From Rhynchobatus australiae (Eukaryota), in assembly GCA_034780895.1 (NCBI GenBank), contig JAUZTB010000080.1:13160098-13224097 (forward strand): DNA of 64,000 nucleotides. Direction: 5' to 3'. Under the pieces are notes generated by a model. That model ran no database searches. It was given only the letters and a program-made list of their open reading frames with translations, and had not been told where the DNA came from. The translations under genes were made by a program, and so were the position numbers. The stretch's first letter is position 1. Each line of letters begins with the position of its first letter. Shown here piece after piece: positions 21,333 to 64,000 of this stretch.

Positions 21333-21398
21333 GTGGCATGATTCCCTGGCTGGCCAGCTCTTCGCGTGTCCGCCGTTGCTGAAGCTTTAGCTGCAGTA
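21333..21398 (-). CDS. MRTFA: RPEL repeat 1 exon of MRTF-A: (V)LQLKLQQRRTREELASQGIMP(P)
   Basis: 66-nt phase 1-1 exon. Branch point CACTAAC (21424-21430), pyrimidine tract and ...ctggcag| acceptor; CCAC|gtaagt donor. LQLKL..REEL..SQG is the MRTF-A form (MRTF-B has LQLRL..REQLVDQG). Too short to appear in the ORF track. Confidence 0.96.
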
Positions 21399-22679
21399 CT
21401 GCCAGAGAAAAGGGAGGGACATGGTTAGTGCTGCTGAGCAAGTGCTACAACACCCTACTTCTTTGAGAAGGTTCTCCATTCCTAACTTCACTTTTTGCAG
21501 AAGTGGTAACACGTCTAGTGTTTCCGCCCAGCTGCCTCTGCGTAGGAAATAACAAAGCTGTCTGTCATTCTGATAAGCTCTACAATAAGATTTTGCAACT
21601 TTTTTTTGTTATAAATAAATCTTGAGGGTTTAAGTTCTCTCCTCACTCCTCTTTTCAGTACAACACTTTGCAGCTTTAAAAAAAACTGCTTCTATGTAAA
21701 CCACAAGACAGTTATGAAAGTAAGCCAAGTACTCCACCACATAGCAGCAGTGCAGGACCTGAAATTTTAAGTCAGGGGTCAGAGATTACCATCAACCTTA
21801 GACATGATCCACAGGATGGTGGGGGAGAGGAAGCACAACCTCACTCTGTACAAAGACAGGCCTAAAATCCCATTTCAGTTTCTTCCACTAAGTGATCTAG
21901 AAAGCCCATGGTGTCTGTTGATCACAGCACAGGACTTGCATTTCAGCACCAGTTTTCAACCTAACCAGTTGAACTACTGTTCCATTTTATTCTTGGCCAA
22001 ATCAAGTTTGAAATCGAAATTTACACTGATCTGTGACATTTGCTCGCCACTTATATTTTCTCCTATCCTTTCTTTCAAGCCCAAGACAGTCAAGTCGCCA
22101 TTCACTGTCTTCATAATTCAACTGCGTGATCAGGCTTGTGCATCTTCTCTGCCTACTTCCAGCACCCAAATCACATGCAGGAACTGGATGTAGAGAGTAA
22201 AGATCATTGCAACTCCACCATAATTTCCTCTGGCTTGACGATAAAATTCAACACCACTCCGATACCCCAAGAATCCAACCACAAGACTGAACAGCGACAC
22301 CATCACACGAACCAGTTTAAAAGCAAAATGGCCATTGCATGTCTGCTCAGAAGAGGAGATAGCAAGTGAAGTAGAAACACAAAGATAAGCCCCATTCCAT
22401 ATAGTCATGAAAAATCAGTTTTCCCCTCCTGATCAGATACCCTTTAAAATTAGGGCAGCAACAATGAGACTCCAATGTAAATGTCCTCCATTCAACAATT
22501 CCAATGCTCTGCTCTGCATGTAAAGTGATCACAAATAAGTTGCAAAGAGTAGAGTTGAATACAAAATTGTGTGCGTCAGTCTATGGAGGTTTTAAATCAA
22601 GGGTCAGGGATTACCATCAAACTTCTACATGACCCACAGAATGGTTGAGGGAAGACAAAACACAGCCTTGCTAAAGAAA

Positions 22680-22812
22680 GTGTAGGTGCTGGAATCTGGG
22701 GCAACACACAAATGAAGCCTCCAGATGAAGGGTCTCGACCTGAAACGTCGACTGCCCATTTCCCTCCATAGATGCCGCCTGACCCACTGAGTTCCTCCAG
22801 CACTTTCTGTGT
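22680..22812 (+). mobile_element. Penelope-terminus element with a hammerhead-like motif
   Basis: ccagatgaagggtctcgacctgaaacgtcgactg followed by gatgccgcctgacccactgagttcctccagc. Confidence 0.75.
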
Positions 22813-23427
22813 AGGCCATTAATATGGTGGCTTTTAACAAATGTCATTGTACTACCGACTTGGAATAGGGAGCAGACCTTGGAGTCACACAGAACAATTT
22901 TAAGTTCAAGATGGGGCCAGCATGCTTTCTAGAAGGATTAAAACACCACTTCTAAATAAGAGTTATAAGACACTCAAAACCAATCCTCATCAAAAAGGCT
23001 ATTATGGCAGATGCCAAAAAAGTTTTGTCAAAGTGCTAGGCTTCAAACTGCATCTTATGGATGAACCTCAAATAAAATGAGATAGATAGCCTCCTCCTTC
23101 TAGAATTGAGTGGTATCTACAAAAGCATTTCCCTTTGCTACCTTCTAGACAGCCTGCAATGATAATAGCGCTGAAAATGATCAACAGAATCAATATTGTT
23201 GGAGAACAATTCCAAGATTCAAGATTTACTTTGTCATTTCTTTGAGTATTTCCATACACAAAAAAATGAAATACTGTTTCTCACCAGCTCATATCAGTGC
23301 AACAAAAAGAACAGTGATAAATATCTANNNNNNNNNNNNNNNNNNNNNNNNNNNNNNNNNNNNNNNNNNNNNNNNNNNNNNNNNNNNNNNNNNNNNNNNN
23401 NNNNNNNNNNNNNNNNNNNNNNNNNNN

Positions 23428-24045
23428 GTGAGCAGACTAAACAGTAAAGGGCTCAGGACGCAGCCTTGAGGTGAGCCTGTGCTCACTGAGATGGTTCCTG
23501 ATGTGTGACTGCCAACTCTAACTATCTGCTGCCGCTGCGTCAGGAAATTGAGGACCCAATTGCAAATGCCAGTGTCCACCTCTAACAGCCTCAGCTTTTC
23601 CACCAGTTGTGGAATGATCGTGTTAAATGCTGTGCTGAAGTCAATGAAGAGGATCCTGGCATATGTATTCTTCTCCTCCAGATGCGACAGCGTGAGGTGG
23701 ACCGAAGTGGAGATTGCTTCCTCTGTGGATCGATTGACTCTATATGCAAACTGTAGGGGGTCTAAGTTTGCAAGGAAACAGGTCTTAATATGCTGTGTGA
23801 CCAATTGCTCAAAGTATTTCATTATTAAGGGCCACAGGGCAGAAATCATTCAGGCAAGCTGGGTTTGACTTTTTAGCGACAGGAATAATAATGGCATTTT
23901 TGAGGCAGGTGGGCACTACTGCCTGGCTGAGCGAGATATTAAATATGTCTGCAAAGACATCCTTCAGCTGCTCGGCACAATCCTTTAAAACACATCCAGG
24001 GACGTTATCCAGCCCCGCAGCTTTATGTGGGTTGACGTTGGCGTA
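23428..24045 (-). mobile_element. Rex1/Babar LINE reverse-transcriptase fragment
   Basis: ORF 23325-23849 gives [47 protein letters not shown], characteristic of Rex1 RT. Confidence 0.9.
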
Positions 24046-24584
24046 TTGATTTTAGGATAAGTTTCTTAATGGTGAGAATTCTTTGATGTAACATGACTGT
24101 GTGTCATAATGTTAATTCTTCAGCTCCAGTGAAATGAGCCAAAGTAGCATCCAGTGCCATCAACACAGATCCATGCTACCTTGAATCAGCTATTCTCAGA
24201 GCATTAACTGGCTTGTTTCCATAGTTACATGTGTGGGGATGGGAAGAACAAATCAACCCACCTTCCTTCTTTTCATCAGAAGGAATGAAGGAGGCTGGGA
24301 ATTAGGAATGCATTTCTTCAGACAAATACCATTGGGCAAGATAGTGAAGAACAGAGGGAAATCCAGAGAAAATAATGGCATATGCACGAGCTTTGAGCTA
24401 CAGTGTTAACATATGCCACAAAGTCAACTGCAGCCAAATAGACTGATTAAAAAATATGCTCAAATGAAGAATGATTACTATGAGGTTACAAACAGTACCC
24501 AATGAACAAAACACCATATTTACAGCCTTTAAAACGGGAAGGGATATAACAGCAAAGAGTTTCTTGAAATCAAGCACTAGCACC

Positions 24585-24830
24585 AAAATGGCTCCTAAAG
24601 TCAAGTGACATCCTGTTTAGCAGCAATAAGTTAACTGGTCTCTCGTCACTTCTGCTGCTTTTGACAGTGTTGACCACACCATCCTCCCCCAACACTACAT
24701 CACATTCACTTAACAGGGCAGCACCACATTTGCTTGGTTCCACTCTTGTCCATCCAGTCATAGGCACAGAAATTCCTGCAGCTGCTTCCCATCCCACAGT
24801 TACCCCTGGAGTCCTCTCAATATTTATTTC
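24585..24830 (+). mobile_element. L2 LINE RT fragment
   Basis: tctgctgcttttgacagtgttgaccacaccatcctc encodes SAAFDSVDHTIL. Confidence 0.65.
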
Positions 24831-27001
24831 CTTATCAAAGTGCTGCACTCCTACTGTATCCAGTTTTGGCCAATGCAAAGAGGCGGCAGCTGCTCAAAGA
24901 AGATTCCTTTCAATGATGGCAAGGCAAAGACTGAAGCAGTCACCATTTTCAACTAGAAGTATCAAGTTGGTATTCAATCTCAGCCTACTCCCCGAGATCC
25001 CCACCAAGGAAGCCAGCCTTCAGTCAATTCAACTTACTGCAAGAATTGGCCAAGTCTACTGATTGCAGCAAAAACTGGGAATGTACAAGTATCCTGGCTG
25101 CAGTACTGAACATGTGCTCCAGAGCAAACTATGTTTCTATATCAAGTCACTACAACAGCACCGAAGACAAAATCAATTCTAGTTATTTATACCTAATCAA
25201 TCTGCTCTCAAAGTAATGGAAGGTGTCACTGAAAGTGCCATCAAGTGGCACTTACTCACCAATAATCTGCTCAGTGATGCCTAGTTTGGACTTGGCCAAG
25301 CTCTAGACCCGAACACAGCCTTGGTTTCAACAAGAACCAGAAAGCTAAATTCTAGAGATGAAATGAGAGCGACTGCCCTCGACGTCAAGGCAGAACTTGA
25401 CCAAGTGTGGCATCAAGGCACCCTGCTAGACCCGTTATGCAACTGTGCTGCCCTATTGTGTGCCTTGATTCTTGTTCTCATAATCCTCCATGGTCCTGCT
25501 GCTCCCTCTCTCCAACTTTCTCAAGCTCAGAAAGAAAGGTGTACGAATTTAATTGCTCTACCACTGGCAACCTTACCTTCAACTGCTCAGCTCTAGAATT
25601 CGCTCCAGCCTTTAACTCCTTTGTTCTTTTCTTGCTCTAAAAGCCCCCAGTATCCTAAGTAGGAATGTACTACAGCTAGCTACATTAATAGTACTATTCA
25701 CTGTTGCAGTTGTGCCTTCTAAAAGCTTTAAGATTTTAAATACCTCTGCCCTATAAAACTGCAGCAACAAAAAAAATGGCTTGACCTTTCTTCAGTTTCC
25801 CAAGTTCATTACATTCAGAAATAAGGAACAAAGCATGCATGAGGGAAAAGCAGAGCTTCTCAGCCTTGCTACTGAACACCCACATACAAAGGCTTAGCCT
25901 TCACTTATGAAAGTGAATGCAATCTTTGCCTGTCTGATAACATGCTGTTCTTTCTGCTTGAAGATCCCTGACAAATACAACTGCACCTTTGGAATTAAGA
26001 GATCTCAACTTCCATGGACAGGCAAGGAAAATCACAGATGTCCCTTTGCCCAATTTATCTTCTACCCCTCCTCCATCACATACACCACGTAAACAAAAAT
26101 GTTTATGCCAGTCCTAGCTTCAATAAGCAACTCTGCAAGATGAGAGTCTATGATACAAAAGGACAACAGACATGAAAAATTCTTTCAAAAGCTGCCCTTT
26201 TTTGAAAAAAGTCAGGGCATTCACCCAAGGAAAATGATCAGATAAATTCCTGAGGATTCACATAGGTCCACACTGCTTCAAGTCACAGGGGTAGATTTTA
26301 CTTACAAAATTTGTATTAAGTATATTGATCTACTAACTGCAATTATTTGTCGATAAAATCTTGCTTTTGAGAGGCACTCATCTTTCAGTAAACTTCATTT
26401 GGCCCCATGCCCTGCCCAGTGTCTATCAATGACCCAAGTTTCACTTCACATGTGTAAATGATTTGATAAAAAGTAGTGCTATTCTCAGTGAAACTGCCCC
26501 CATCCTGTCTGGATGATCCCATGATAACCATATTTACTTCACAGAAAATACCTCCTCATCCAACGTGCAATACAGGAAAACATGGCAAGAGCAGAGGAAC
26601 TTTGCAAAAAATTACAGAAGTTAGTTCAAAGCTGTCAAACCTCAGATTTTGTTTGTAGACTGATATCATCTGGCTTTGCCTTCCTTCCAAAATGTCATCA
26701 TCACAACATAAATGAAACTTCAATTAACTCATTAATTACCTGTGACATACAGCTAAATTTTTTCCTCAGTATTTACTATATAACATTTCCCTTGGGATGC
26801 CACCAAGTGATGGAGGAACTAATCAAATGATACACCTTTGTTCCTGCTGTTTGACATTACTGAGCCATGTTTCCCCTGTTAGTAAATAGGTGTAATACAT
26901 TATCAGTGTCCTGTTTACAAGAATTTTAGTTTTGAAGAATGCAGGAAAGAGGGGCTGTATTGTATCAGTATTGTGATCACAGATCATTGGGAGAAACCAT
27001 A

Positions 27002-27350
27002 GGGCAGCATGGTAGCACAGCCAGTAGAGCTGATACCTCAGAACCCCAGCAACCCAGGTTCAGTCCTGACCTTGGGTGCTGCCTCTACGCATGGAGTAGA
27101 GTTTTCAAGTTTTCCCTGGTGTCTACATGGGTTTCCTCCGGGTGCTCCTGTTTCCTCCCATATCTGAAGGACATGTGATTTTGTAGGTTAATTAGCTGCT
27201 CTAAATTGTTCCTAATGTGTAACTGAGGGGTAGAATCTGGTGGGAATTGACAGCAACATGGGGAAAATAAAAAAAAGAATTAATGTNNNNNNNNNNAATT
27301 AATGTAGGGTTAGTGTAAATGGGTGCTTGACAGTCAGCATGGACTCAGTA
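27002..27350 (+). mobile_element. V-SINE (tRNA-derived, HE1-like)
   Basis: Head gggcagcatggtagcacag with a B-box-like ggttcagtcc, then V-domain gggtttcctccgggtgctcc. Confidence 0.85.
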
Positions 27351-27784
27351 CCCTGACGGACAATCAGTTTGCACAAAAACCAGAGGCTGTGCTACAGCCA
27401 GGAAGCTCCTAAAACGAAGTGCAACACACCATTTCACCAGTTCTCTTCATAAATTATTTGGAGGGAGCCGAAATGACAAAAGCACACATCCATCATTTTC
27501 CGATTATATATTTGCTGTCTAGAGTTTGAAACACTTGTCTCATATCATTCATCCATATATAAATACTAAAACACAGATTTTTAGATACATTTTCCTCAAA
27601 GCATGCAGGAAAGTTCCTTTCTGGAACTTCACATGGCAGCTATGTAACTGGACTTTGGTTCCTTGCATGTTCCTTCAGGATTGAGCAGCTGGTCTTTATC
27701 ACTCCAGTCTACATTCAAATACCAATGCATTTCTGCCCATGGATTTCCAATACATTAATGACAGTTCTCTAAGGCAGGTCTCAG

Positions 27785-28000
27785 AATCAGATTTATTATC
27801 ACTGACAATGTGAAATTTGGTGTATAGTGCAAAGACAAAAATCTATAAATTACAAAAATAGTGCAAACAAAAAGGAATAATGAGATAGTGTTCATGGGTA
27901 CATGGACCGTTCAGAAATCTGATGGTGGAGGGGAAGAAGCTGGTCCTGAATCATTGAGTTTGGGTCTTCAAGCTCCTGTACCTTCTCCCCAATGGCAGGG
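27785..28000 (-). mobile_element. Rex1-type LINE 3' end
   Basis: Reverse of the tail at 29640-29845 and 59560-59766 (aatcagatttattatcactg, gttcagaaatctgatgg). Confidence 0.75.
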
Positions 28001-28964
28001 AAGCATGCTAAAGCAGGAATAATCAAAGAATGTTTTAACATTTGAGAGAAATATTTAAAAATATGATGAGAATGACAGGGAAACTACACACTATAACCAC
28101 AGAAAGGACGTTTCAAAAGTAGTCCTTCTGAGTTCCAGTGTACAGTACTGGTCCAAGCTTGGATGGAGAATGGAGGAGAGAGGACAGCATAGAGGTAAAC
28201 ACTAGCTCACTTGTAATCAATTGAGACATTTGGAGGTGGTGGTGGAGGCAGAGATTTTCATAACATTCAGGTAGTATCTGAACAAGCATTAAACTGGCAA
28301 GGCATAGACAGCTATTGACCAATTGCTGGAAAATGGGATTAGTATTGATGGGCACTTGTTAGTCAGCACACACAGTGGTCCAGAGGGCCCATTGCTGTGC
28401 TGTACAACTCAATCATTTAGTATCTCCAAGACAGTTTTGTTTGTGACATACAAATTACACCTTTTCCACTCATGAGCCCATCATCTTTTGCTTTAATTTC
28501 CATTAAGTACAGCCATCCTCCTCCATTTTCCATGGCAAGAATAACCCCTTACACCTCTAATTTTCATCACATCAGTGGGTTTGCCTTCACTCAAGGCTTG
28601 GAATTCCCTTCCTAAACCCCTCCTACCTCTTTCTTCCTTTTACATGCTACCTTCATAACAATGCACCAGTCTTCTTCCCAGTTAGTCCTTGTGGTTGGGT
28701 ATCAAATTTTGTCTGAGAACACCCTTGAGAATTGATTTAGCTATATTAAAGATGCTATATTAATGCAAACTCATTGCGTAGAATAGAAATTTCAAGGACT
28801 GCATGGCCATAAATAAGAAACACTTCTGAAGCAAGATACCATGCAAAACGATGATTAAAAATGAGCTGTAGTCTAACAATCTGAGGTTTGACATTATGGC
28901 TGTGAGACACCAAATATAATCGAGTCCCACCATAAACAAATATCTATGATTCTTCATGGGATTT

Positions 28965-29845
28965 GCTGGCAGCTCCATCACAGGCATAACCCTCCCCACC
29001 ATTGTTTGTCATCTATATCAATGATTTGGATAAGAATGTACAAGGCATGATTAGTAAGTTTGCAGATGACACTAAAATAGGTGGTATCATGGACAATGAA
29101 GGTGGTTCATGCCACACCTTGCACTTGTGTGAATATAAACACCATTTGAATTTCTTGGCCCACTTACTCAGCTGATCGAGATCCCCCTGTAATNNNNNNN
29201 NNNNNNNNNNNNNNNNNNNNNNNNNNNNNNNNNNNNNNNNNNNNNNNNNNNNNNNNNNNNNNNNNNNNNNNNNNNNNNNNNNNNNNNNNNNNNCCACCTA
29301 TTTTAGTAAGTTCGCAAATGACACTAGAATCTGTGGTACAATGGGCAATGGTTATCAAAAATTACAGAGGGATCTTGATCAGCTGATTAAGTGGGCCAAG
29401 GAATGTTAAGTGGTGTTTAATTCTAGTAAGTGTGAGGTGTTGCATGAACCACCTCCATTGTCCACTATACCATCTATTTTAGTGTCATCTGCAAACTTAC
29501 TAATAATGCCTTGTAACTCCTTATCCAAATCATTGGTATTGATGACAAACTACACTGGGCCTCGAGTAGGTGGTATCCATCACTGAGGACCTCAACATCT
29601 GGGATATGCCCTCTTTTGTCAGTACCATCAGGGAGGAGATACAGCAGCCTGAAGACCCACAAATCGACAATTCAAACAGCTTCTTCCACTCCATCATCAG
29701 ATTTCTGAACAGTTCATGAACACTACCTCAATATTCTTTTCTTTGCACCGTTTTCGTAATTTATAATTTTATGTCTTTGCACTGTACTGCTGCCACAAAA
29801 CAAATTTCAAGTCATCTAAGGCAGTGATAATAAACCTGATTCTGA
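28965..29845 (+). mobile_element. Rex1-type LINE 3' fragment interrupted by a CR1-derived fold-back (29004-29550)
   Basis: cagctccatcacaggcataaccctccccacc before the palindrome and catccatcactgaggacc after it are collinear with the copy at 59440-59766. Confidence 0.7.
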
Positions 29846-32800
29846 TATGACATCACTTCTGACAAAGGATAACACATTAAAATGTGGGTGATACTATTCT
29901 TAAAGGGCCAACAGCTCAGATTCTTTATAAATTTAGGAACTCAAGGCAGAATACCAAAACACATTGAATAAAGGATGGGCAGAGGAGTTAAAACAGATTA
30001 AGGGAGGAAAAAAAACGAAGGACAGGAGTTCTGTGAACCTGAACTACAGAAGAAAAATAAAGAGCTGCAGTTTCAATTTCATTACAATGGAGCTGTAGGG
30101 AAGAGAAAAAATACATAGGATGATGCATTTAAAATCTGGAAGGAAGAATATACTGCAGCTTTACATTCCAAGTTACTATACAGGAACCTAATCAAAACAG
30201 AACATCTGAGTCACCACTGCACAGTACAACTGATCAAAAACTCAAATGGACCAGCCACTTAAATACTGTGATTTCAAGAGCAGGACAGAAGCTGGGTATC
30301 TGACAGTACCCGACTTACCTATTGATACTCCAAAATCTTTGCCACATCTATAAAGGCACAAATTAGGAGCATGGGGGAAACTCCACACATCTGGATGAGT
30401 GGAGCTCCAACAACCTCAACACCATCTAGGATAAGGCAGCCCACTTGACTGGAGCCCTATATTCCTTATAAGATGTATTGCAGTTGCACATACATTAGAA
30501 TGATGTGCAACCCCTCCAAATTGCACATCATCCTGACTTAGGAACATATTGGCATTCATTCAGGGTTGCTGGATCTAAATCCTGGAACTCCTTCAGGATG
30601 GGAGGCAATTCAATGTGGCAACTCGCCACCACCTTCTCATGAATTGATTCAACATAGGCAATATATGATGGTATCACTGAACCTCCCCCCCACTAAAAAC
30701 ATGAATAACTTAAAAAGATCAGGACAAATCATCAACACATTAGTCACAGATGTTGATTTTGATTAACATCATAAATGACAGATGAGAGGGAAGGTAGTTG
30801 GAGGGAAAAAGTTTAGGGAAGGAACCTAGAACAGCTGAAGACTTAACTACTAATGGATACATAGAGAGAAAGCAGGGAGTATAAACAAAAAGGAACACGA
30901 TGAAAGAGAAGGATCACCCACCAAAGTGCCTTCCAACACACCCTGTCCAAAAATGCAGAATGCCAGAAGACCCTCTGCTAATGTGGGAGTGGTATTTAGG
31001 TCACGGACAGTGATCAAATGATCAAGAAAGGTTTGGACTCAAAAAGTTCAAACTTAATTAGATTGCAACTTCGAAAACACCCAAGTTATAATTTTTTTTC
31101 TTTGATAGCACATGGAGACTTCCAACATTGCTGGATGATGCAGACAGTAAGTAACCCCCATGAAGCTAATGCAGAACCACCAAGACTGAAGTAATAAAAG
31201 CAGAATGATTAGCTGTTTATCAACAAGTTTCAATTCCAAAAAATTTACATAGGGCAGCCAGTGCGTAGAATTAATACAAAGCACTTAAAATAAAGAAGTG
31301 TTTGGCGCTTTGAGACAGCTCATTTCCCTTTTCAAACAAACATACTGAAGTGAAATTCTATGAAAGAAACTGTTTGCTGGTAGCATTGTTGAATAAAATG
31401 GAGCTTTAATGTGTAATTAGGGGCAGATTATCTTGAATGAGGAAGAAAAAAATGAAAGGAAATGCTGGTAGAGTTAGAGTGGGAGGAAGCTCACATGGAG
31501 CATAAACACCAGCAAGTGGAATTGATCTGAACAGTCTGTGCTGTATGCTCTACATCATTCTATGTGAAACAAACAGATGATGGATATGGGTCCATTTTCT
31601 TTGACTTTGTCCTCAAAAGGTGCCTGGCAGAATTACTATTCCAACATACCGACCATACAAATAGAATGGCTTGCACTTTAGTGCCTTTGATGTCCCCACA
31701 CCAACTTCACTGCCAATTAACCAATCACACAAACAAACACATTTGGATACAAAAACTGCAGTAATTTGTACCGTCTTTGTCAGGTTTTGCAGTCTATACA
31801 TGTAATATGTTGAGCTAGTTTAATTTAGTTGTTCCAGTGAAAGATTGAATGCAGGCCAGGAGTAAACCATGCTTTTCAATAAGGTGTCTTTGGGAATTTT
31901 TCTCCCCAAGCTGAATAAGCATGTTGCACTTTGGCTTAATCTGATACCATGGCATATCTCAAGTGTTGCATTAGTCTGAATTATTTACTTGAAGTCTTAT
32001 AATGGGGCTCAAACCAGTAATTTTCTGATTGAGATACAAACACACTGCTTGCAAGCTGTTAAAGCTTCCTTGGCAATAAATAATTCTAGACTTACAAACT
32101 TCATTAGTCAATGAATTGCTATCCATTTCAAACTTGCTTGGTGTTGCAACTCAAAGAGAAAATTAAACATCCTACTGGACAATGTCTGCAGTTCATTTTT
32201 TAAACTCAGCTAATGAAAAGAACTCCATGCAGGAAACAAATGCTTCACAAGCAACAAGTGGAGATGATAATAAAGAAATCTTTGAAAGAGCGCTCCTATT
32301 TAATAAGGATAGGCCAAGATGGTTTTCCACTTGGTCTATATTTACCAACCAATGTGTAAAGTCTCCATTAGCATTTAGAGGTCAGTACTCTATATTCTTT
32401 GGCGTGTAAACAAATGAGATGGTGGTTTGCTTTTGGCTCAAGTTTGCTGAGAGTTCTGTACTAAAAACAAAGTACTGGACTTAGCGTAAACGGCACAGTG
32501 CAAGTGTCATAGATGAACCAACCGTTGCACTGTTCAGGCTGTAAAAGTGAAGCTCTTAAATACAAAGGACACTTCCTGCTCACAAGATGCAAGTCTGGGT
32601 CAATAGTTTCATACTTTCTTACAAAAATACCATTTTAAAAGTCAGATTCTAATAAACACTCCGGAGACATCCAAATGCTCACAGAAAGGGTTTCAATTTC
32701 CTCAATAATACACATCATCTCAATAACCACATCAAAGCTTTTCAATAATTACCAATATATCCTGCTCAAATTTACCTGCAATTAGTATGAAAGCAGCTCA

Positions 32801-35800
32801 AAAAACAAACCCAAATTTTATCCTCTTTCTAAAGTAGGTAGAGGATTTGCCTCTTAGCTGACAATGTCTTTATAGAGAAAAGTCAACAGAAAACAATGAA
32901 GGGTGCACAAATAATTTGCAATGTGGATTGGGACACATTTAAATTTCAGAGCCAGGTAATTGCATTGGCTTGCCAAATAAAAAAAATCAAACCTGGAAGC
33001 TTCTGGTCATTGTATTTAATAGGGAAAGTGCTGGGGCTAACAGACAGGGTCCAGGGAGTTAATGCTATTTTTTACGTTACCTAAATGTTTACACCCAAAC
33101 TCAGACAGCACATATTTCCATTCCACACCCCATTTCTGGGTGAGAGGATCAGTCAGCTTCAGTTGTGATGACTATCGACCGCTTTCAATCTCTGAAACTG
33201 TACTCAATAGGAAGTGGTTTGACACTCCATCNNNNNNNNNNNNNNNNNNCCCATGCAGTCAACAGGAGAGACCTTCAGCTAGACTAGAAGCATGCCCAGG
33301 ACAAAAAGTTAAATTACTGCACTAATTAGTCCTCTGGAAAGAAAATGGTTTCAGTTGTTAAAAATATTTGCTGTTCACTTTCAATAAAGTTAATATAAGA
33401 ACCAAGGGTACACGGTATGGTTGCTACTTCAGTTCAGCACTCTAGGAGGTGCTGTCTTTCAAGCAATGAAGCTGAATCAAAGCCAACAGGTGGATGTAAA
33501 TGATCCCACACCACCATTCAAAATAGTTCTGGAAACACTGTACCTTGGCCAAGATTCCTCCCTCAACCACCAACACATTACCAAGTTCCTTCCTTCTGCA
33601 TGACCTTGATGCATGCATATTAGCCAACACTTTGTCTAAATAACAAGTCAATACACTATACTGGTTTAATGGATATGCAGTGCCCTGGAAGAGCTCAAAG
33701 AATACATATTCCTTTATAAACTAGCATGAAAGAAAAAAAAATCACAAAAGGAGCAAGCACAGTTGAAGAGGTCTAATAAGGGCAAGTTACTGATACCTTG
33801 CTACATCTACCTTTCTCACTACATTGTCAAAAGTACTTATACATCAGTCCATAGCTCAGTGGGGAGAATGGTTCATGGCCATGCTCTCTATTTACATTAC
33901 TAAGGCACTCCCTTACAACAACTGCAGAAATGGTATTGAATCTATCATTCTGCCCTGAAGTGCATAGTTATCCACACAAAATGCAAAAGGATAAATTTCT
34001 TTTTGAAATGCAAGCAGACCAACTACACACAAGAACTAGGAAGCAGTAACTTCATAAGTGTCTCCCTCAGCCTGTCAGAATGCACACAAAAGGATACATT
34101 TCAAAAATGGATGCAGAAATATTATCACTAATTTAAAAGGATACAAATGTATATACACCACATAACATAAAATCATCTCACAAATGGGCAGAGTACAAAC
34201 TACAGGGATTAATGAGATGAAAAAGCTGTCCATAGGCAAGGTCTAACCAATAGGTTTTTAAATAGCTTTTGATGGCAGATTGCAAGGCATAGTGCCTCTG
34301 AAAAATGGTCTAATGACTCAAACATCAGGAGGCAGATGGTGAACAAAAATAAACTTCACTGCTTTAATGTATCACCTTTCTAGAGGACTTTCTTCTCTAC
34401 ATTTGTATTTATCAGAAGAGTTTTCAATCAGGACCTCTTTGAAAATTCTAGGTGAAAGTTTGTGTAATGATTTACTCAATCCAATGACAGTTTTTATTGA
34501 CATGCTCCACTTTGATAAGTTCCTCATTCAGAAACCAAACCCTTCAAATCAGAGTTAATCAGACAGAAGAAAACAGCCTCTCGGCCCAAATATAACTTCA
34601 TGTCATCCATGCAGGTCATTGGACAACTTCTCTCATCAATACAATCTATTTATAAAGCTCGTGTATAGACTTACCAGCTGCAGAGCACTGAGCTATAATT
34701 ACATTTTCACAGCTATTTTAATTTATCGTGGCATCAGTAAAACTAATAATAAGAATGAAGTAAACATCAATATAAAATCATAAATCCTACAGTAGGGAAA
34801 GTTGCTTGGTCTATTGGACACGTTAAGTTTCGTGAAAGCATTATCCAATTATGTCCACTCCCTCGCTCTCTTAAAATTTGCCCTGTAAATAGTTTCTGTT
34901 CAAGTATCTCTCTAATACCCATTTAATTGTTACTACTTAATCTGCTTCTACCACAGTTACAGTGCATTCCTGATCATGACTGTGGCATCTAATATAATAA
35001 AGCAATCATGAAACATGGGTTCAGCAAACAATGCGAATAGCAAATAGCACATTGAGCTTTTTTGCAAGGGGCTTGGAGTTCAAATGGAAGGAAACTTGGG
35101 CAACTATGCAGAGCTCTGTGAGACTCTACCTAGAGAAATGTGCGCAGTTTAGGGCTCATTATCCAGGAAGAATATTCATACCTAGAAGGTAATTAATTTC
35201 CGAAGGGTTGTCCTCTGAAGAGAGGTTATGATTGCCCAATACTCAATGAAGCTTGAAAGAGTGAAAAGGTGATCTTTTAGACACAAGATTACAAGAGGGA
35301 CTGAGAGGAGATGCTGAAAATCCACAATCTTTTGCTTGAGTCTACATCAACATTACGGAAGTGCCCTCATCCACCCTCAAAAGAAAAACACAACAAATCC
35401 CTGATAGCTCTCCTTTACCAGTTTATGTTTGCTCAGTTTCCTTCCCCATAACTAGGATTAAACTAACTGACCCATGATTGCCAGTTTAACCTTCTTCATT
35501 GTGTGGAACAGGTGCATATTTGCCACCATCCTGTACCCCAGAAGTATTGAAGTTTGCAGGTTCACTATCAAAATTAACACTTCCACTTTCCTCTGCCACC
35601 TCAGAATCATCTCAACCTGGAGGGGTGACTCATCTACCTGAATCTTTTTCATACCTCTATTTCCTACCTGGATTTTACAGTTTACAGACAACCCTCTCAT
35701 TTACTGCAGCTTTGGCAAAGTCTTTTTCTTTGGTACACACTGATACAATGACTTTACTTGATACTTTAACTAACAAAGCGCCATCTTGGTTCCTCATCAG

Positions 35801-36689
35801 TCCCACTGCTCCTCTGACATTTTTATTGCTACAACACAAAGGATCACTTCTCATGTAAAACTTCAGAGAATCCTGCCTGTTCTTGTATTGTCTCTTTGCC
35901 CTTTCCTTTTTCAGTTCCATGTGCATATTTTCAATCCACATTCCTCTTCCATTATCATGGTGACATCTGTCATACAAAACTTTCTATACCAACCAACTCA
36001 TCTCTGCTGGTTATGGATGGAACACCAGCTTTGGGTTGCCTTCCCTTTCCCCCTTGTGGGTACATCCCTAAACTGCAACCAATTATTTCTGCCTCTCAAT
36101 CTCCAAGCCCTCATGAATTAGTTTAGCTCTATTACAACACCATCTTTAACCATCCTCTGAGGTTATTCATTTCTCCCAACTCTGGGACCAATTCGGTGGC
36201 AGAAAACTTGGTCAAGCTGGACAGCTCAAAGTATTGGAAACCCACCTTCCCATGTCTATCCATGCATCAACTTGACACTTCTTCCCATCTTTCACATCTC
36301 ATCACCAAGGGGTATTGCAAGTCATCCAGAGATCATTCAGGGTTGTCCTTTAACTCCTTAAGCTGATCGCTGAACCTCAATGCTCTTCCTCCCAATATCA
36401 TTAATTCTGACACTGGACACCAGCCTTGCTTTTCCCCTTCCTCTGCAAAATGTTCTGTATTCTGTTGTGACATGCCATATTCCCATACTTGTTAATGAAA
36501 GAGTTAGGTCAGCTCAGAGCTGATTAGGTGCCTTGTTGGAGCACCAATCTGGCTCCAGTCCATATTAGTTAACAATAAAAAAAATAAGAGCAAATCTGTT
36601 CTAAATCCAGGATATTCAGAATATTCCAATAATAGAGTCAATGTGGTTGAGTTTTAAATGCGCACCAAAATGACCTAGCAACCCTTTAA

Positions 36690-39292
36690 TATGTACAATC
36701 ACTGCTAGGCTAAAAGAATAAAACCAGACGGGGCACTAGCATTGATCGAGACACCAAATTTGGACACAGTGGAACTCCTCCCAGCCTGATTCACCTTGGA
36801 AAGTCCTCCTCTCAAGCATGTGGGGACTAGTGACTAAATTGGGAGAGCTGCCCCACAGACTAATCCAGCAACAGCCTGACTAGTCCTCAAATAATCATAC
36901 CTTACCAACATGATAGATTCCACCTCAATATGGGCACATTATTCCCCACTGACGAGACTGACCCACCAAAGGCACAGTAAATGTCAGAAGCTAGGAGCTT
37001 TGGAAGTCCTCAAGACTGATTCTAGACCCTAAAGTCTCATAGTATCAGGTCAAACATAGTCAAAGAAATCTCTTCCTGATTACCACCTATCGTCCTCCCT
37101 CGGCTCAAATCAGGACTGCTCCACGTTGAACCAAAAGTTAGAAGATGCACCAAAGGGAACAGAATGCACTCTGGGGATTTCTATGTCAAACCACTTGGTG
37201 GTTTCAGCAGATATGGTCCTGAAGGATCTGCCAAATTCAATATGCAGCAGAAAATATGTGAACCGATACGAAGAATAAACCTACTTGTCCTCAAACTACA
37301 GTGCCAGATACATGTCTAGGATGGTATTAGTTGCACTACTGCACAGTCCTTATGCAGTCAGAGTTCCTTCCTTAAACCCAGATACCCTCTATTGTGTTGT
37401 GATGCTACAAACATGCTAAATGGGACAGTCTCAGAACAGATCCGACAGCTCATAGATAAAACAAACGTGGACCATTGGCAATCAGCAACAATGTATACTG
37501 ACACGATCTGCAACCTCTGCTCTTACTCTCAAGNNNNNNNNNNNNNNNNNNNNNNNNNNNNNNNNNNNNNNNNNNNNNNNNNNNNNNNNNNNNNNNNNNN
37601 NNNNNNNNNNNNNNNNNNNNNNNNNNNNNNNNNAAGCTAGGGGTCATCCGGGTCCAATAACTGCATGCCAGCAACAGCACAAGGCGTGTCTTAAAGATGA
37701 GATGATAATGCATGTGCTAAGCAGCAAACATAGCAAGCAATGGATAGTTGAGTTATTGTGTAACCAACAGATCAGGGAAAATTTCTGCAGTCATAAATGG
37801 CAGTGGACAATTAATCCAGCTCCAAGGACATCCCCATGCTTAGCAACAGAGGAGCCCAGTATTCGCAAACACGTTCACACAGAAATGCTGAGCAGATGAT
37901 CCATCTCAGCTTCCTCCCAAGACCTACATTGTCACAGAAGCAGGTCTTCAGCCGATTCAATTTATTCCATATGATAGCAAGAGACTGCTAAAAGCATGGG
38001 TTATGGGATGAAAGCAAGAGATATGGGAACAGGAATATTCAAGCTGTAGTACTGAAAAGTTGTGCACCAGAATTACCCACACCTAGTCAAACTATTCTGG
38101 TGCAGTTACAACACTGGCATTGACCTGACAACGTGGCAGGTTGCCCAGCTATATCCTGTTCACGAGCAGGAAAAGTCCAAACTGGTCAATTAACCACCCT
38201 CAATCAGCAGCAAAATGATGTGAAATGTCATCAAAAGTGCTATCAAGCAGCACTTACTCACTAGTAATCTGCTTGTGAACCATTTGGTTCCAGAGCTCAT
38301 CACCTTTGCCCAAATATGGACCAAAATGCTGAATTCCGGAGTCTTTGGCATCAAGGCAGCATTTGACTGAACGTCTTATAAAGGAGGCCTATGAAGAATG
38401 AAGTCAATGGGCATCACTGGAGAAACATTCCAATAACTGGTACCTTATATAAAAGGAAGATTGTTGTGGTTGTTGGAGAGCAAATCATCCCAGCCCTGGG
38501 ACACTGTTGCTCATGTTCTTCGAGGGCATTGTCTTTGGCTCAATGTTCAGCTACTTCATCAATGGCCTTTTTCTCCCCCAACACAAGGTCAGAAATGGGG
38601 ATGTTGACCAATGGATTGTCCAACTCCTTGACAACTGAATCTGCAAGATCTGGACATCAGCCAAACATTGACCAATTTGTGGCATGTAACATTTTACCAC
38701 AAAAAATGCCAGGCAATGACCATTTAAACAAGAAAAACAAATCGATCTGCTACATAAATATTGTGACTATAAGAGTAGATTAGAGGCCAGGTACCCTGTA
38801 ACAATCACTCACCTCATTTTCAATAAAGCAGTCAGGAGTGTGTGGGAAAACCCTCCACTTGAATGATTGCCATTCCAACAACTTCCAAGGTGCTCACACC
38901 TTCCAGAACAAAACTGCCCACTTGGCTCCACTTGCACCTGAAACATTCATACCCTCTACCACTGCTGCAATTTGGCTGCATCATCATCAAAATACACCAC
39001 AGTTACCTGCACGATCTACTGCAACAACATTTCCCAAGCCCATGACCTCCACGACCAAGAAGGACCAGGTGTAAGGAAACATATTCCCCTCCAAGTCAGC
39101 CCAATTTGGAAATATATATCCACAATTCCTTCACCGGTGCTGGAACCAAATCCTGGAACTGCCTCCCCAACCACATTGTGAAGTTCCTTCACTAGAAGGA
39201 CTACAGCAGTTCAAGTTGCAACTCTCCCACCTTCAAGGTAATAAATGGTGACCTTAGCAGTGACACCCAGATCCTGAAAAACAAATAAAAGT
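36690..39292 (+). mobile_element. Degenerate non-LTR LINE of the CR1/L2 group (endonuclease + RT + tail)
   Basis: ggcatcaaggcagcatttgac (RT DxKxAFD region) and gtactgaaaagttgtgcaccagaa. Related fragments at about 8290-9050 (-), 25060-25430 (+), 30270-30710 (+) and 40100-41090 (-). Confidence 0.7.
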
Positions 39293-40501
39293 TAGTGACT
39301 GCAACACAGCAACTGGATTCACTATAGTCCGGTATTAGTAGGAATTTGGTTCTCGTTTCCAATTACCCAGGTGACCCCTTGACAGCACAGAGAGAGAAGG
39401 ATATCTTTCAATGGCCTATTAATTCTCATCACTTGTACTCACTGAAGATACAGCTTGGAGACAATTTTCTTTGATTGCCGAGACCAACAAGGAAGTGGGG
39501 ATACAGAGATCCAGCACTACAGAGACAGCTTACGAGTGGCACATAAAGATAAAATTATTCACATTACTGGCAACTAGAATGAAGTTCCCTTTTATTACAG
39601 TGCACAAGTTTAGGAGATGCAAAGCATTCATTTTTTCACTTTCAATTTTGACAAGGCATACATTTAATTTTAATGAAAATATTTATTTATTGGATGCAGT
39701 TTATTGANNNNNNNNNNNNNNNNNNNNNNNNNNNNNNNNNNNNNNNNNNNNNNNNNNNNNNNNNNNNNNNNNNNNNNNNNNNNNNNNNNNNNNNNNNNNN
39801 NNNNNNNTTTAATGAAAATATTTATTTTTAAGGAAGAGCAACAGTTCCAATAATTCCATGTTTATGCTACAAGAGAAATAAAAAGACAAAGCTAATATAG
39901 TAACTAGAATTGAAGACAACACCAGATATATACAAATGCAACACTACTTCCTTGCTTTTGCACTCAATGCCTATGTTGCCCAGGATCCTCTAGGTTTACT
40001 CACCACTTTCAATAGTCCTGCAGGCTAATGGACACTTGTTTCTGTTCCTGCAAACCCTTTAGAATTATCCTTAATGTCCTCATTCTGCGCCACACTCCAA
40101 TGTGAGCCTTGTGCCTGTCAGTGACAATCACAGTAGCACAACTAATGTACCACAGAGCTTTAGGGCATTGCAACAAGGTTTTATCTGTTCAAGTTGGTTT
40201 TCTTGTGTTGTAAACCCCATCTGCCAATGTGCCATCCAGGACTCTGCCAACTTGGTCAGTAGGACAACCAAGCCATTCCCACCCAGAGAGCATTCTCTGC
40301 CCACATTAGCTACACTCTTTCTTGCTAGTGACATTCAGCAAAGAGTCCTGAGAGAAGGATAGATGGTAATCGGCAGGAGGTCCATGGCTTGTATTTGACT
40401 TAAAGGGGTCCAGAGTCAATTCAGGTCTCTAGGTCTTCCTCTCAACTATACCACCATCTGTTGGTGATTCTCTCCTGCCAGTGGGATAGATGTAGGATGT
40501 T

Positions 40502-40642
40502 GACACAAGAGACTGCAGGTGCTGGAATCTGGAGCAAAATACAAACTGGTGGAGGAACTCAGTGGGTCAGTCAGCATCTATGGAGACAGAGGGATAGTCG
40601 ATATTTTGAGTCAAGACCCTTCATCAGGACTGAGTGTCAAGG
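40502..40642 (-). mobile_element. Short Penelope-terminus element with a 13-bp TSD
   Basis: gatgtaggatgtt at 40489-40501 and 40643-40655; minus strand carries AGTC-CTGATGA-AGGGTCTTGACTC. Confidence 0.8.
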
Positions 40643-41145
40643 GATGTAGGATGTTCTTGGATTTTGGCTGATGGGTGTGACTTTGTGCTTTGGACTCGCC
40701 CAAGGGACAACCCTATCAGTTTCGGCACTAGTCCCCGGTGACAGGTTTGACTAGGCTGATTGCGGCTTTGTCACACCCATTGCCCAAGTTGATTCCAGAT
40801 TCTCTGTCAGATCTTTATCACAATGCTCATGTTAGCTGGGTCATTTCAGATGGCAATCAAGGCTCAACCACATTTCTATGGGTCACTCAAGTCAGAATGG
40901 ATACATTTAGCGAAGCAGGTTGGTTTTTAAGCAAGTGTGACAATTACACGGTCAGTATTCTGGTATAGGCTTAGTATTCCACATTTGTTTAATTATCCAA
41001 ATTAAATTCCCAGTTGACGTCATGGCATGCATATCTAGATCATTAGTTCAGAGCTTTGGGTTTCTAGTTCATTTATACATCTACTGCACTCCTGTAGCAA
41101 ACATTCCTGCCGCATTCTATCAGTGCTCAAAAGCAGAAAACTAAC

Positions 41146-41272
41146 CTTCTTTTATACCACGGTAACCGTGCTGAATACTATCAGTGCAGCACTGTCCTTT
41201 CCATGTGCTGCCGCCAGTGACAGACAGAATCTCAGACAAGACAGACTTGATTTTCCTGCTCTTGTCCAGCAT
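41146..41272 (-). CDS. MRTFA: Putative alternative first coding exon of MRTFA: MLDKSRKIKSVLSEILSVTGGSTWKGQCCTDSIQHGYRGIKE, spliced to VLQLKLQQ
   Basis: ACCATGC start context, 127 nt (42 codons + 1) with no stop, donor GAAG|gttagt in phase 1 matching the RPEL1 acceptor. Resembles the human MRTF-B N-terminus MIDSSKK..EILT..KECLE..SLKE|VLQL (from memory). Non-repetitive, with CpGs retained upstream. Confidence 0.72.
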
Positions 41273-41880
41273 GGTAAAAGGCTGCTCGAGGCAAGAAGTT
41301 TCAGAGCTTTTCTAAGACAAACCGTTGCCTGCAGTGGTGAGCTTTGACAGTGCAGTGAGAACTCCTCCAACCCTTGTATCCAACTCTTGATATTCGATCC
41401 GTGTGACCTGATTCGCTCTGCACAGAAGCTTGCTTTTTAAAAAAGAGCAAATCTTTGTTTATAATCTAACATATGAAACAAGATCCGAAAATCACACAGA
41501 TTAAGAAGTTAGACAGATGTCCAACAGAAGTAGTCGGCAATTATGTGATGTAGGTTAACATTTGCATAGTCTGCACTTTACAAGACGGGCAACACACAGC
41601 AACAACCGACTCGATGCAACCAAAATAGTAAACACACAGCTGCCTGCTTAGCTCCAATCAACACATGCTGCTTAATTTTTTTTTAAAAAAGAAAGAAAGG
41701 TTTTTAATATCACTGAATCCATCAAGTTCCTTATTTATTTTCTGAGTAACACCACAGATGTTTATCCTTTTATCTTCCAGTCCTCCAGGTCTGTTACTGA
41801 CATTCAATGTAACCGTGCACACGAGTCGCTTGTCATCTGGGAAAGTACCACATCGCAAAACAGTCCCTCCGACATGAATT
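41273..41880 (-). promoter_or_regulatory. Candidate 5'UTR/promoter of the 41272 alternative exon
   Basis: Non-repetitive, with visibly more CpGs than the flanks, directly upstream of the ATG. Confidence 0.4.
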
Positions 41881-57400: not shown

Positions 57401-59144
57401 AGCGACCACAATAGAATCGAATGAGCTGTACAACTAATCAAGGATTTACATGAATCGAGGGGGTAAGCTTTTTTGGCTAATATTTTTAGAGTACTAAAAG
57501 TTTGGAACTTACAAGATTAATGTACTAACACAATGAAACTTGAAAATCTACTGAACTTTAAAATATTTGCAGGTAAAATTACAGCTCACAAAATTAGATT
57601 TTTAGGATTACAGAATTTGCTCAACAGCAATTATGGATTGGTATACCAATAAAATCTCATTGTATAACAATACAAATTTCCCCAGATACGCACCCCACTC
57701 AAAAGGCCACACCTAGAGTTGAGGGGGAAAAAAGAGAAAGGCAAAACAAAAAGTTTGAGCATTCCCTGCCAGATAAGCATTGATTTTTCATACATTTGAT
57801 CTTATACAAGGGCCTTCCCTATTTCAAACCAATGAAGTGCTTAACCGGCATCATAACACTAGCTTAGCAAGTTAATGGACTGCAATAGTATATATACCTC
57901 AGATTTGACTCCCAATGTTCAGAGTCTGAAGTGTAGAGACATCAGCTGCTGATCTTCTAACACAGAACAAAGCACAACATTAAGCTCGAGCCATTGGAGT
58001 CCTGACATTTTTATCACAACTCCCAAATAGGTGAAGGCGTTTGGAGGGGGTTAAGGGGAAATATGAAAAATTCAAAACAGTGTTGAGTCCATAAACAGCA
58101 CCAAGAATTGCGTGGCACATATTCAACTTGCTATGCTAAGAGACAAGTGAGAAACAGCAAAAGAATGTGTTCAAATTATCAGTAAATTGGCCATCCAAGC
58201 AGGATTGCAAAATAAAAGTTAAACTACAGTACTCTATCCCCAGGGCTCAATTCTCTCTGGAAATCAATCTCCCTCAGATAACTGGGACAAGAACAGTGTT
58301 AGTCCACTCCACAGCAAATCAAGCTGTCCAGCAGTGAACAGCCACTTGAACCAAATTCCACACAACCCTACCCAGTCATGTGCTGCTTTACCTGCACTAT
58401 ACATAGTGGATAACGAGCATCAGATTTCTTGTTCCAAACAATGCCATTCTTATGCAGTCGCTCGTAGTACTTTGTCTTGGCCACAGCAGCTTCACCAGTC
58501 TTTTTGCACAGACATATCACTGGACACAACTGAGTATACAGGCATGTTCTGATGTAGTCCCCTCCCATTAATATTTAGGTGGAGCCAACATGCATGAGCT
58601 CACCCTTAGAGAACAGCCTTGAATACACAATGCTTTCACTGCGCTGTGAACTTTATCCTGTGAGGACAATCACTCGCTTTCTTCCACAAAGAACGTTAAC
58701 CCTTTCATTCAGCTTGCTTTTTTTAAAAAAAAGAGAAAAGACTGCATGCACCAACTTCCTTTCTGAAGTGATGAAATGAAACATCTTTGTCTCTTCTACT
58801 CTCAAATATTCCTTTGCAGGTGTTTAAAAACTGTGGAGCTTTTCCTCTAGTCTTTCCTTCCACATACAGTCAAGCTCGGGTCTGGAATTATTTCCAAATG
58901 CACAAAGTGCCCAGGTTTCTTCCATCCACCTCGGTAACTATAATATGGGCCCATACCTTCCAATTTAAAATAAATCAATGCTTCCCAAGTGAGGTTGAGG
59001 TTCTTAAAATTGAGATAACTTTACAAACCCTTTATGAAAACTGGTGCCACCTTGAGTCCATTCAAAATCTACATCAACAATCACACACTTATTAGTGACC
59101 AATCTCAGGAAGGTAGTGTCCTTAAAATATTTCCGGCTAGAGAG

Positions 59145-62080: not shown

Positions 62081-62249
62081 CTATGAATACTATAAAGATG
62101 ATTATTCTTAGGATGACAATTGGGTCAGATATAGAAAAGTGATTAATTCAGATTGGACATGGTCAGGTCAGAGCTGGGCTGGATTTTGATTTTTATACCC
62201 AGCAGACCTCTAACCAGAGGTCACAAAACAATTTTGAATTATTGAAATG

Positions 62250-62510
62250 TCTTTGAAGCAGAGTCGTTGTGATGTAGGAAACATCAGCCCAATTGTTTAC
62301 TGAAAACTCCAACAAACAACAAAGGTACAAATGCTCTAGTGATGTTTGCTGGGGGATAAACATTGGCTCATAATACTAGAGCAATTCCCTTGATGTTCCT
62401 TCAAAGTGGTGCCATGAGATTCATCTTGCATTTATTTACCCAAGTGATTCTTAGTTTAACATCTCACCTGAAAGACAACATGTTTGACAGCGTAGCATTC
62501 CACTACAGTA
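62250..62510 (-). mobile_element. Deu-domain SINE
   Basis: gggataaacattggc, gtgccatgagat, tttaacatctcacctgaaagac. Confidence 0.65.
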
Positions 62511-63049
62511 CATTCCACTTCTATAACTAAAATTAAACATAAGAAATGGAAGGAGGAAGCCAATCAACCCTATGCTGCTCCACCACCATTCAATACAACC
62601 ATGGATGCTAACTTTTTGTGCCCCCGTGATGCTTTTCTGCACCAACTCCATTTGTTAATACTCAAAAATGAATCAACGTCTAACTCAAATATATTCAGCA
62701 AACCTTCTGTCTCATCACTAGTAAACAGCTGCAATTAAGCCATGTACCTTCTCCTCTACATGGTCACAACATAGTATTCTCCTGTACTTGGTCACAATAT
62801 AATATTAGCACTCTGCTGGATGAAGACACACAACACAACATGATCATCCTTCCTTTATGCAGCAAGTGATGGCAAGATATTCAACTATACAAGACTTCAC
62901 AGTTGGGCTTGAACTTCTCATCTCTCCCAATAGCTTTTCAGTGGGCCTCCTGAGAACCACTGGTTTCGGTACTGGATATGGACAGGATCACAAACAGTCT
63001 GTCACAACACAAGCCACTGCTACGTGATATGCACTTGGGAGATGCTCAC

Positions 63050-63239
63050 CATTTTTCCTCTTGTTCAAAGGCGAAAAGCCGTTGCTTGACTGCAGCGTGA
63101 GCTCTTGCAGTTCATTTGCGACCGCTTCACTCTGTGGACTCGGAGCTGATCCATCTTCTTCACTATCGCCAACCCCACCACCGTCTGACCCATTACCAGA
63201 AACGGCGAGGGGAAGGCTCACTTCATTCGGCAAATCCAC
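63050..63239 (-). CDS. MRTFA: MRTF-A long-isoform N-terminal coding exon. Whole exon is 63050-63257; coding from a putative GTG start at 63239: VDLPNEVSLPLAVSGNGSDGGGVGDSEEDGSAPSPQSEAVANELQELTLQSSNGFSPLNKRKN
   Basis: Acceptor ttccctctccaccttctgttttcattgttacag|G at 63258/63257 and donor AATG|gtgagc at 63050/63049 (phase 1). The PSPQSEAVANELQEL and PLxxRKN motifs match the MRTF-A N-terminus. Joins in frame to the RPEL1 exon (G+TA = Val). Confidence 0.93.
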
Positions 63240-64000
63240 TTTGACTTGAATATTAACCTGTAACAATGAAAACAGAAGGTGGAGAGGGAATTGATTAAAA
63301 AATGAACACATTCTGACCACTGTACTATGTTCTAACAAATGAACAATAAAAACAGGTGAAAATCAATTAATTTTCAATTTGGAAAATTAAGCTCTTTGCA
63401 GCCATTAGTAATGTGAATCTGCTCTGAGAACTTTGCATGACAAGCCCCTGGAAAACATAGATCGCTTTCTTTGTCTCAGGATCAAACTTACAGCAAAGAT
63501 AAGCACCCATAACCAAATTCACCACTACCTCAGTATATACCAGCAGTTTTTGAATATCATTAACTCAAACCTACCACCAAGCTTGTGGTCTTCATGACAG
63601 CAATAGTCCCCACTTTACACTGCAGAGGTGCAGACCATCTGCAGCAGCAACCTCAAAGCACTGAAGATGACCACTGGTATCTCATAAAGTCCTCCAAATC
63701 CACTGGAGTGGGGAACCAGGCAGTGTGTACTTCCTAGCCAATGTGCCCAGCATCGTGGCTCTAATTACATTCAAATAACTCTGATGGATGGGACATACCA
63801 TCTAAGCTCCATAATAGTAAGACATTTCCACAAGGACAAAGTGTTTCAAGGATGTTCTCAAAGGCTCCATTAAGCAAATGAGACATTATAGGAATGGAGG
63901 AGCACCACTTGGGCAGGCACTGGGCATCTGAAGTCTCTTCAATGACAGCACAATGAGGATGAGTGAAAACAAAGGAGCACAGAACCTCCAAGCAATGTGT

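Follow-up and report, generated by a model that had tools for sequence, protein, structure and literature searches.

Alternative 5′ exons upstream of a shared RPEL1 exon in the MRTF-A gene of the ray Rhynchobatus australiae

MRTF-A connects the genes controlled by SRF with the state of actin and with signalling by ERK. In mammals it is produced as several isoforms (full-length or MKL1_L, BSAC or MKL1_S, MELODY and MKL1met), in which alternative 5′ exons are spliced onto one RPEL1 exon (PMC3821035, PMC8079280). The same reports describe a long form that starts from an internal exon at a non-AUG codon, and a short myocardin-like first exon located between the long-form exon and RPEL1. In rat isoforms RPEL1 differs by one residue (PMC3821035). 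Mouse MRTF-A has a docking motif for ERK that overlaps RPEL1; it is absent from BSAC and is needed for S98 phosphorylation, an event that inhibits the binding of actin; an export signal, NELQELSLQ, lies upstream and is boosted by S33 (PMC4963197). The biological purpose of the isoform switch was called open in that study. The docking motif has been given as RKNVLQL, and mouse MRTF-B, with isoforms 1–3 and SOLOIST (MRTFB i4), also uses separate 5′ exons, the motif being broken in SOLOIST by a microexon of 21 amino acids between RKN and VLQL (PMC8593110). The present analysis concerns a 64-kb window (contig JAUZTB010000080.1, 13160098–13224097) of Rhynchobatus australiae, a ray, in which the 5′ region of the MRTF-A gene lies on the minus strand.

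Our data indicate that this region comprises two conserved in-frame exons (63257–63050 and 41272–41146, here class 1 and class 3), a class 2 exon with a shifted frame and a cassette exon, all upstream of a single RPEL1 exon. The 5′ to 3′ order is class 1, class 2, cassette, class 3 and RPEL1 (Table 1). We are confident of this arrangement and, by analogy with the mouse work, of the likelihood that exon choice tunes export and ERK input. An earlier note on this DNA had claimed that three exons, ending at 63050, 48134 and 41146, can all be spliced to 21398. As far as the junctions go this was correct: a GT donor directly follows each of the three, all are in phase 1, an AG acceptor precedes 21398, and all three joins are in frame. 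Several upstream exons are thus able to join RPEL1 in frame, from the phases here and from named models in which class 1, class 2 and class 3 are each joined to RPEL1.

Identification of the gene as MRTF-A is based on a tree of the last exon built from 22 named proteins and the ray gene (23 rows). The ray gene grouped with batoid MRTF-A, and the branch separating MRTF-A from MRTF-B had a support of 100/100 in this midpoint-rooted tree, which holds no myocardin row. When shark MRTF-A was used in tblastn, RPEL1–3 and the downstream exons mapped in order on the same contig, the remaining parts of the gene being 16–45 kb past the window start. The domain order is that of MRTF-A, with three RPEL motifs followed by the basic, Q-rich, SAP, leucine-zipper and C-terminal activation regions. 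The RPEL2–3 exon by itself is nearer to tetrapod MRTF-B and is not diagnostic of the paralogue. MRTF proteins were collected from three homologue searches (the best 120 of 2715, the best 120 of 3458, and 14 of 14) and three cluster look-ups; most of them are computed XP_ models. Class counts given below describe the top matches of these searches, not full samples, and the comparison is one within jawed vertebrates, lamprey, hagfish, chimaera and gar sequences not being among the proteins collected. N-termini were defined as the protein part preceding RPEL1; 152 distinct ones served as tblastn queries and 245 distinct ones entered a later comparison. The 152 queries gave strong matches in the window at 63257–63050, 53241–53122 and 41272–41147 only, and further shark isoforms matched 58447–58391.

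The class 1 exon is conserved. It matches Mobula P0135 with a tblastn E-value of 2e-38, and the class 1 profiles of MRTF-A and MRTF-B match each other with E 4e-19. It was proposed earlier as an N-terminal exon; however, since a polypyrimidine/AG acceptor is present and an in-frame ATG is absent, it is not a first exon. It encodes an S33-like SP site, a sequence NELQELTLQ resembling the export signal NES1, and KRKN, with which the ERK docking motif begins; its second half, VLQL, is encoded by the RPEL1 exon. The NES1, S33 and docking-motif sequences of ray class 1 and of its junction match the motifs of mouse MRTF-A (PMC4963197), judged by sequence. Long human MRTF-A begins at a GTG in exon 3 (PMC8079280), a codon that we infer to be the same as the in-frame GTG at 63239, which stands in a strong context. 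Residues KVD are found at this site in 65 of 70 class 1 MRTF-A N-termini; two more begin there (P0215, P0217) and three are without it. By this analogy the GTG at 63239 likely starts the long isoform of the ray. An upstream exon of 73 nucleotides is read as coding in some shark models and is out of frame with class 1 in the ray. It contains a short upstream frame whose stop lies just ahead of the GTG. Because of these two features it fits a non-coding leader.

The cassette exon was overlooked in the earlier note. It matches Mobula at 97.5% in tblastn and is present in models of 16 of 19 shark and ray species; it matched no Pfam family. Among 70 chondrichthyan MRTF-A models it is found in 36, in 11 after class 1, in 6 after class 2, and in 19 as the start or with other leaders. 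Its last 31 residues are 24–30/31 identical in eight of nine models and 16/31 in one with an indel. The cassette inserts in frame between RKN and VLQL, the SOLOIST-type position. In contigs of a relative (X1 and X2, from one study and taken as RNA by guess only), one long contig spans 53121–53241 with 7 differences in 121 nucleotides. Beyond this stretch its loose ends agree with the first bases of the RPEL1 exon (30/30) on one side and with the last bases of class 1 (29/30) on the other. Thus, the splice path class 1 > cassette > RPEL1 (63050>53240, 53121>21398) is used in a relative. Since these contigs join class 1, the cassette and RPEL1, the exons are not mutually exclusive, as had been supposed when two of the phase 1 exons (58447–58392 and 53240–53121) were missed. 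Co-use is seen elsewhere as well, with class 2 and cassette together in 6/70 chondrichthyan models and class 1 with class 3 in 6 of 167 bony-vertebrate ones. Class 1 directly joined to RPEL1 is found in 6/70 chondrichthyan MRTF-A models.

The class 3 exon, proposed earlier as one of the N-terminal exons, is real and is likely an alternative first exon. Its peptide is identical at 39/42 positions to Hemitrygon P0471, at 28/42 to Heptranchias P0121 and at 28–31/42 to sharks, and it is joined to RPEL1 in 9/70 chondrichthyan MRTF-A models. The shark class 3 profile matches the tetrapod MRTF-A LRE class with E 2e-5 and the MRTF-B MIDSS class with E 5e-5, while six control comparisons of class 1 against class 3 gave E 0.05–0.7. 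As far as profiles can tell, the evidence for homology of class 3 across MRTF-A and MRTF-B is weak but consistent. Database MRTF-A models of mammals, reptiles, birds and coelacanth also carry class 3, and no class 3 MRTF-A isoform is described in the accessible parts of PMC3821035, PMC8079280, PMC4963197 and PMC8593110. In six turtle MRTF-A models (P0230, P0241, P0363, P0365, P0368, P0372) class 3 is internal and follows class 1. Five CArG-like boxes were counted in the 64 kb, and only the one at 42285, about 1.0 kb from 41272, is near the ATG of a real exon; in this raw count none of the others lies less than 1 kb upstream of such an ATG.

The class 2 exon, of the myocardin or BSAC type, was assigned in the earlier note to 48197–48134. 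The true class 2 exon is at 58447–58392. It matches the shark class 2 profile with E 3e-6, and in comparison with the peptides of the ray myocardin-like and MRTF-B exons and three sarcopterygian BSAC-type peptides, 0 of 2000 shuffles scored as high. It sits between class 1 and RPEL1, the same order as in ray MRTF-B. The distance from ATG to donor is 56 nucleotides in the ray as against 58 in sharks and 55 in the ray myocardin-like and MRTF-B exons; because of this length the frame is broken, with a TAG at 58399–58397. Further in, an ATG at 58404 shares the frame of the donor and encodes four residues, identical to those that open the Pristis model P0252.

A related exon is present on another contig of the ray, in a myocardin-like gene (C62) that is probably myocardin itself. 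This exon has 18 codons, ends in phase 1 and resembles 58447–58392 at the DNA level (8 of 1000 shuffles as high). The 114 kb upstream of the RPEL1 exon of that gene, 10.5 kb of them N, gave no class 1 or class 3 match.

The candidate at 48134 is one of 620 that combine an ATG, an open frame and a phase 1 GT between 21399 and 63260. Its donor is fair, ranking 7 of 620 by a simple score built on base frequencies, with three unsupported candidates of at least 12 amino acids ranking higher, and its KARS ending resembles the myocardin ending. It has no tblastn match with the 152 N-termini. From its two possible starts, 830 and 1191 of 2000 shuffles scored as high against the same five class 2 peptides. 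Among the 245 N-termini its best local match is a ferret-specific leader, not of the myocardin type, with 6/100 shuffles as high. On these sequence comparisons it is likely a chance frame. Another BSAC-like profile match, at 44384, was dropped because neither an ATG nor a donor was found there.

The model of the earlier note, in which three mutually exclusive first exons represent one paralogue class each and the full set is kept only in cartilaginous fish, is therefore to be judged on the following. All three donors do share phase 1 and the frame of 21398, direct joins of class 1 and class 3 to RPEL1 occur in the models counted above, and 48134, like 63050, lies outside both stretches compared with the contigs of the relative. 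However, 48134 scores like shuffles and has no homologue, the real class 2 is at 58447, class 1 is internal, the cassette is co-included, and tetrapod MRTF-A has all three classes. We consider this model hardly credible.

It could be argued instead that class 1, whether the cassette is included or not, is the one class of importance in rays, and that classes 2 and 3 survive as remnants yielding hardly any protein or none. The frameshift of class 2 agrees with this, and models with the full class 2 peptide are known for 5 of the 11 shark species and for none of the 8 batoid species (Fisher p 0.045, in a test whose species are not independent and whose models are incomplete). A class 3 model is known from just one of the eight batoid species, and X1 and X2 show only the path through class 1 and cassette. 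However, class 3 keeps an open frame of 42 codons with high identity to Hemitrygon and to sharks, and Pristis P0252 implies continued splicing of the class 2 exon. Rare forms are lost from contigs, so the lack of cover by X1 and X2 at 58392–58447 is no evidence either way; the empty 41146 bin is equally uninformative, as X1–X4 are swamped by short repeats on 21310–41309. A relic status of both exons is quite improbable in our opinion, and the arrangement with two conserved in-frame exons, the frameshifted class 2 and the cassette is preferred.

Table 1. Features of the 5′ region of ray MRTF-A (positions in the window unless another locus is named)
Feature	Position	Strand	Description
Upstream exon	L023:9251-9179, ~40 kb 5′ of 63257	-	73 nt, out of frame with class 1
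Internal class 1 ('ERKN') exon	63257-63050	-	208 nt, phase 0 to 1, own acceptor and GT donor
In-frame GTG, inferred as probable non-AUG start of the long form	63239-63237	-	context AAA-GTG-G
Class 2 exon, coding part (overlooked in the earlier note)	58447-58392	-	56 nt, ATG to donor
Shark/ray cassette exon ('QQEE')	53240-53121	-	120 nt, phase 1 to 1, in-frame ATG at 53214
Middle exon of the earlier note, rejected as likely chance	48197-48134	-	ATG, open frame and GT candidate
Class 3 ('LKE/LRE') exon, coding part	41272-41146	-	42 codons + 1
Shared RPEL1 exon	21398-21333	-	66 nt, phase 1 to 1, AG acceptor before 21398; encodes VLQL

If the ray protein behaves like its mouse counterpart, different exon choices would have different consequences. 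A long form starting from the GTG at 63239 would carry NES1 and S33. The direct join 63050>21398 alone would build the ERK docking motif KRKN|VLQL for S98 phosphorylation, loosening actin binding. Inclusion of the cassette would keep NES1 and put 40 residues between the basic residues and VLQL, which would give a more cytoplasmic, ERK-insensitive form. A start at class 3 would be without both NES1 and the docking motif. Class 2 transcripts can no longer encode a BSAC-like peptide, and their translation would begin at 58404, at 53214 or at the terminal ATG of the RPEL1 exon. The ray gene resembles mammalian MRTF-A in its use of alternative 5′ exons on one RPEL1 exon, in a long form whose presumed non-AUG start lies in an internal exon, in the place of the myocardin-like exon, and in putative NES1, S33, docking-motif and S98-type sites. 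It differs in the broken frame of class 2 and in a 40-residue cassette that is commonly included. The likeness to SOLOIST is one of position: the ray cassette belongs to the other paralogue, has 40–41 amino acids and not 21, has its own ATG and shows no sequence similarity to the 21-residue microexon (811/1000 shuffles as high). SOLOIST itself is enriched in neurons.

Several points weigh against this picture. The majority of the homologues behind the exon calls are computed XP_ models. The junction evidence is drawn from a relative and not from this species; it consists of two contigs, both produced in a single study, that count as RNA by guess only. The class 2 peptide of Stegostoma (14 amino acids), one of four shark ones, scored no better than many shuffles (515/2000 as high), and the class 2 frameshift, in an exon that DNA contigs X6 and X7 also span, could be an assembly error. 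The cassette junction keeps one Arg before LLQVLQL, so that some docking could remain. The export and ERK effects in fish are drawn by analogy from mouse.

The distribution of the exon classes gives an idea of their age. [quoted passage not shown] Among 167 bony-vertebrate MRTF-A proteins with RPEL1, class 1 was found in 47, class 2 in 51, class 3 in 53, class 1 with class 3 in 6 and other N-termini in 10; 38 further proteins lacking the RPEL1 exon were set aside. All three classes are present in MRTF-A of marmot (P0328/P0333/P0188), Zootoca (P0354/P0361/P0359) and Microcaecilia (P0227/P0384/P0382), so the full set is not special to cartilaginous fish. Bony-vertebrate MRTF-B (n = 108, nearly all tetrapods) has classes 1 and 3 and no class 2, and chondrichthyan MRTF-B (n = 86) has classes 1 and 2 and no class 3. 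In the ray MRTF-B gene class 1 is followed by class 2 and then RPEL1, as in MRTF-A, and no class 3 exon was found between class 2 and RPEL1, a stretch in which 4137 of 27826 bases are N. This gene does have an intact first exon of the myocardin type (C127:16350972-16351026, minus strand, L049), as do 17 of the 86 chondrichthyan MRTF-B models and none of the 108 from bony vertebrates.

From these sequences the three exon classes likely predate the split of MRTF-A and MRTF-B. The simplest reading is that a three-exon set older than the split was kept whole in MRTF-A across jawed vertebrates. Two other elements of the earlier note hold: the residues that directly precede RPEL1 do change with exon choice, and the classes of N-terminus are ancient and occur across paralogues. 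Of the three exons for which it required homology to paralogue exons, class 1 and class 3 have such homologues, as does the 58447 exon, and none was found for 48134 among the N-termini compared.

In-frame inserts at the docking junction are found in shark and ray MRTF-A (40–41 amino acids), caecilian MRTF-A (34), catshark MRTF-B (17) and mammalian MRTF-B (21). In six pairwise comparisons of these inserts none beat the shuffles (the best with 161/1000 as high). This fits independent gains, divergence from one exon being less probable. It could be that the class 3 exons of the two paralogues arose independently and that the cassettes descend from one ancestral exon and have diverged beyond recognition. 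The class 3 similarity is indeed weak, and the four cassettes share position and phase. However, the class 3 peptides of both paralogues share a length of 40–43 amino acids, an M-[LI]-D start and an L-[KR]-E end, and the cassettes differ in length (41, 34, 17 and 21), fail to beat shuffles in any pair and have a patchy distribution. We regard this history as unlikely. A wider proposal is that RKN|VLQL is a recurrent switch, with at least four independent cassette gains (shark/ray and caecilian MRTF-A, catshark and mammalian MRTF-B) that uncouple ERK docking from export. In the same proposal the cassette form would be the main long isoform of sharks and rays, ray class 2 an untranslated leader, and the three-exon set older than the A/B split, with all classes kept in MRTF-A, 1 and 2 in MRTF-B of cartilaginous fish and 1 and 3 in that of tetrapods. 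Taken as a whole this proposal is tentative, and we would not yet bet on it.

Some other features of the region were observed. The intron after RPEL1 contains a single isolated exon for a cathepsin propeptide, bounded by AG and GT (20547–20425, minus strand; Pfam I29, E 6e-12). Its flanks are 77–79% identical to C70:4226748-4227263, near a related exon group on that contig, and it probably arose when part of a cathepsin gene was copied. At 20957–21215 there is an N gap, and beside an N gap lies a reverse-transcriptase fragment (23849–23427, minus strand; Pfam RVT_1, E 1e-14), a remnant of the long interspersed nuclear element type. High-copy short repeats at 22700–22810, 27100–28000, 29000–29850 and 40500–40640 are abundant in the contigs of the relative. 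The CpG-rich start of a PPPDE-peptidase gene (PF05903, E 0.007, below the cut-off), presumably DESI1, points away from MRTF-A at L027:4546-4629 (plus strand) and would bound its 5′ end. Other RPEL matches in the genome, on C68, C76 and C98 (L003–L008, L010), look to us like three PHACTR-type genes.

An isoform system of this kind is already known from mammals. No new kind of system is present here, and the claim that cartilaginous fish preserve a living ancestral state falls. In the open-access literature no study was found of these exons in cartilaginous fish or of their evolution, and nothing further on the evolution of the GTG start or on docking-site microexons beyond the papers cited. Judging by its legend, figure 8B of PMC4963197 may already align some of these N-termini. 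The new part is modest and consists of a three-exon set of ancient origin, retained in different combinations by the paralogues, together with unrelated cassettes at one docking junction in four lineages. Within the ray gene itself, the newer elements are the cassette, predicted to break the docking site, and the frameshifted class 2 exon. A class 3 MRTF-A isoform is also indicated in mammals, beyond those described in the accessible text of the cited papers. An exon set older than the split, and inserts that recur at the docking junction, suggest that selection has long favoured keeping ERK input apart from export, and provide natural variants with which this can be tested.

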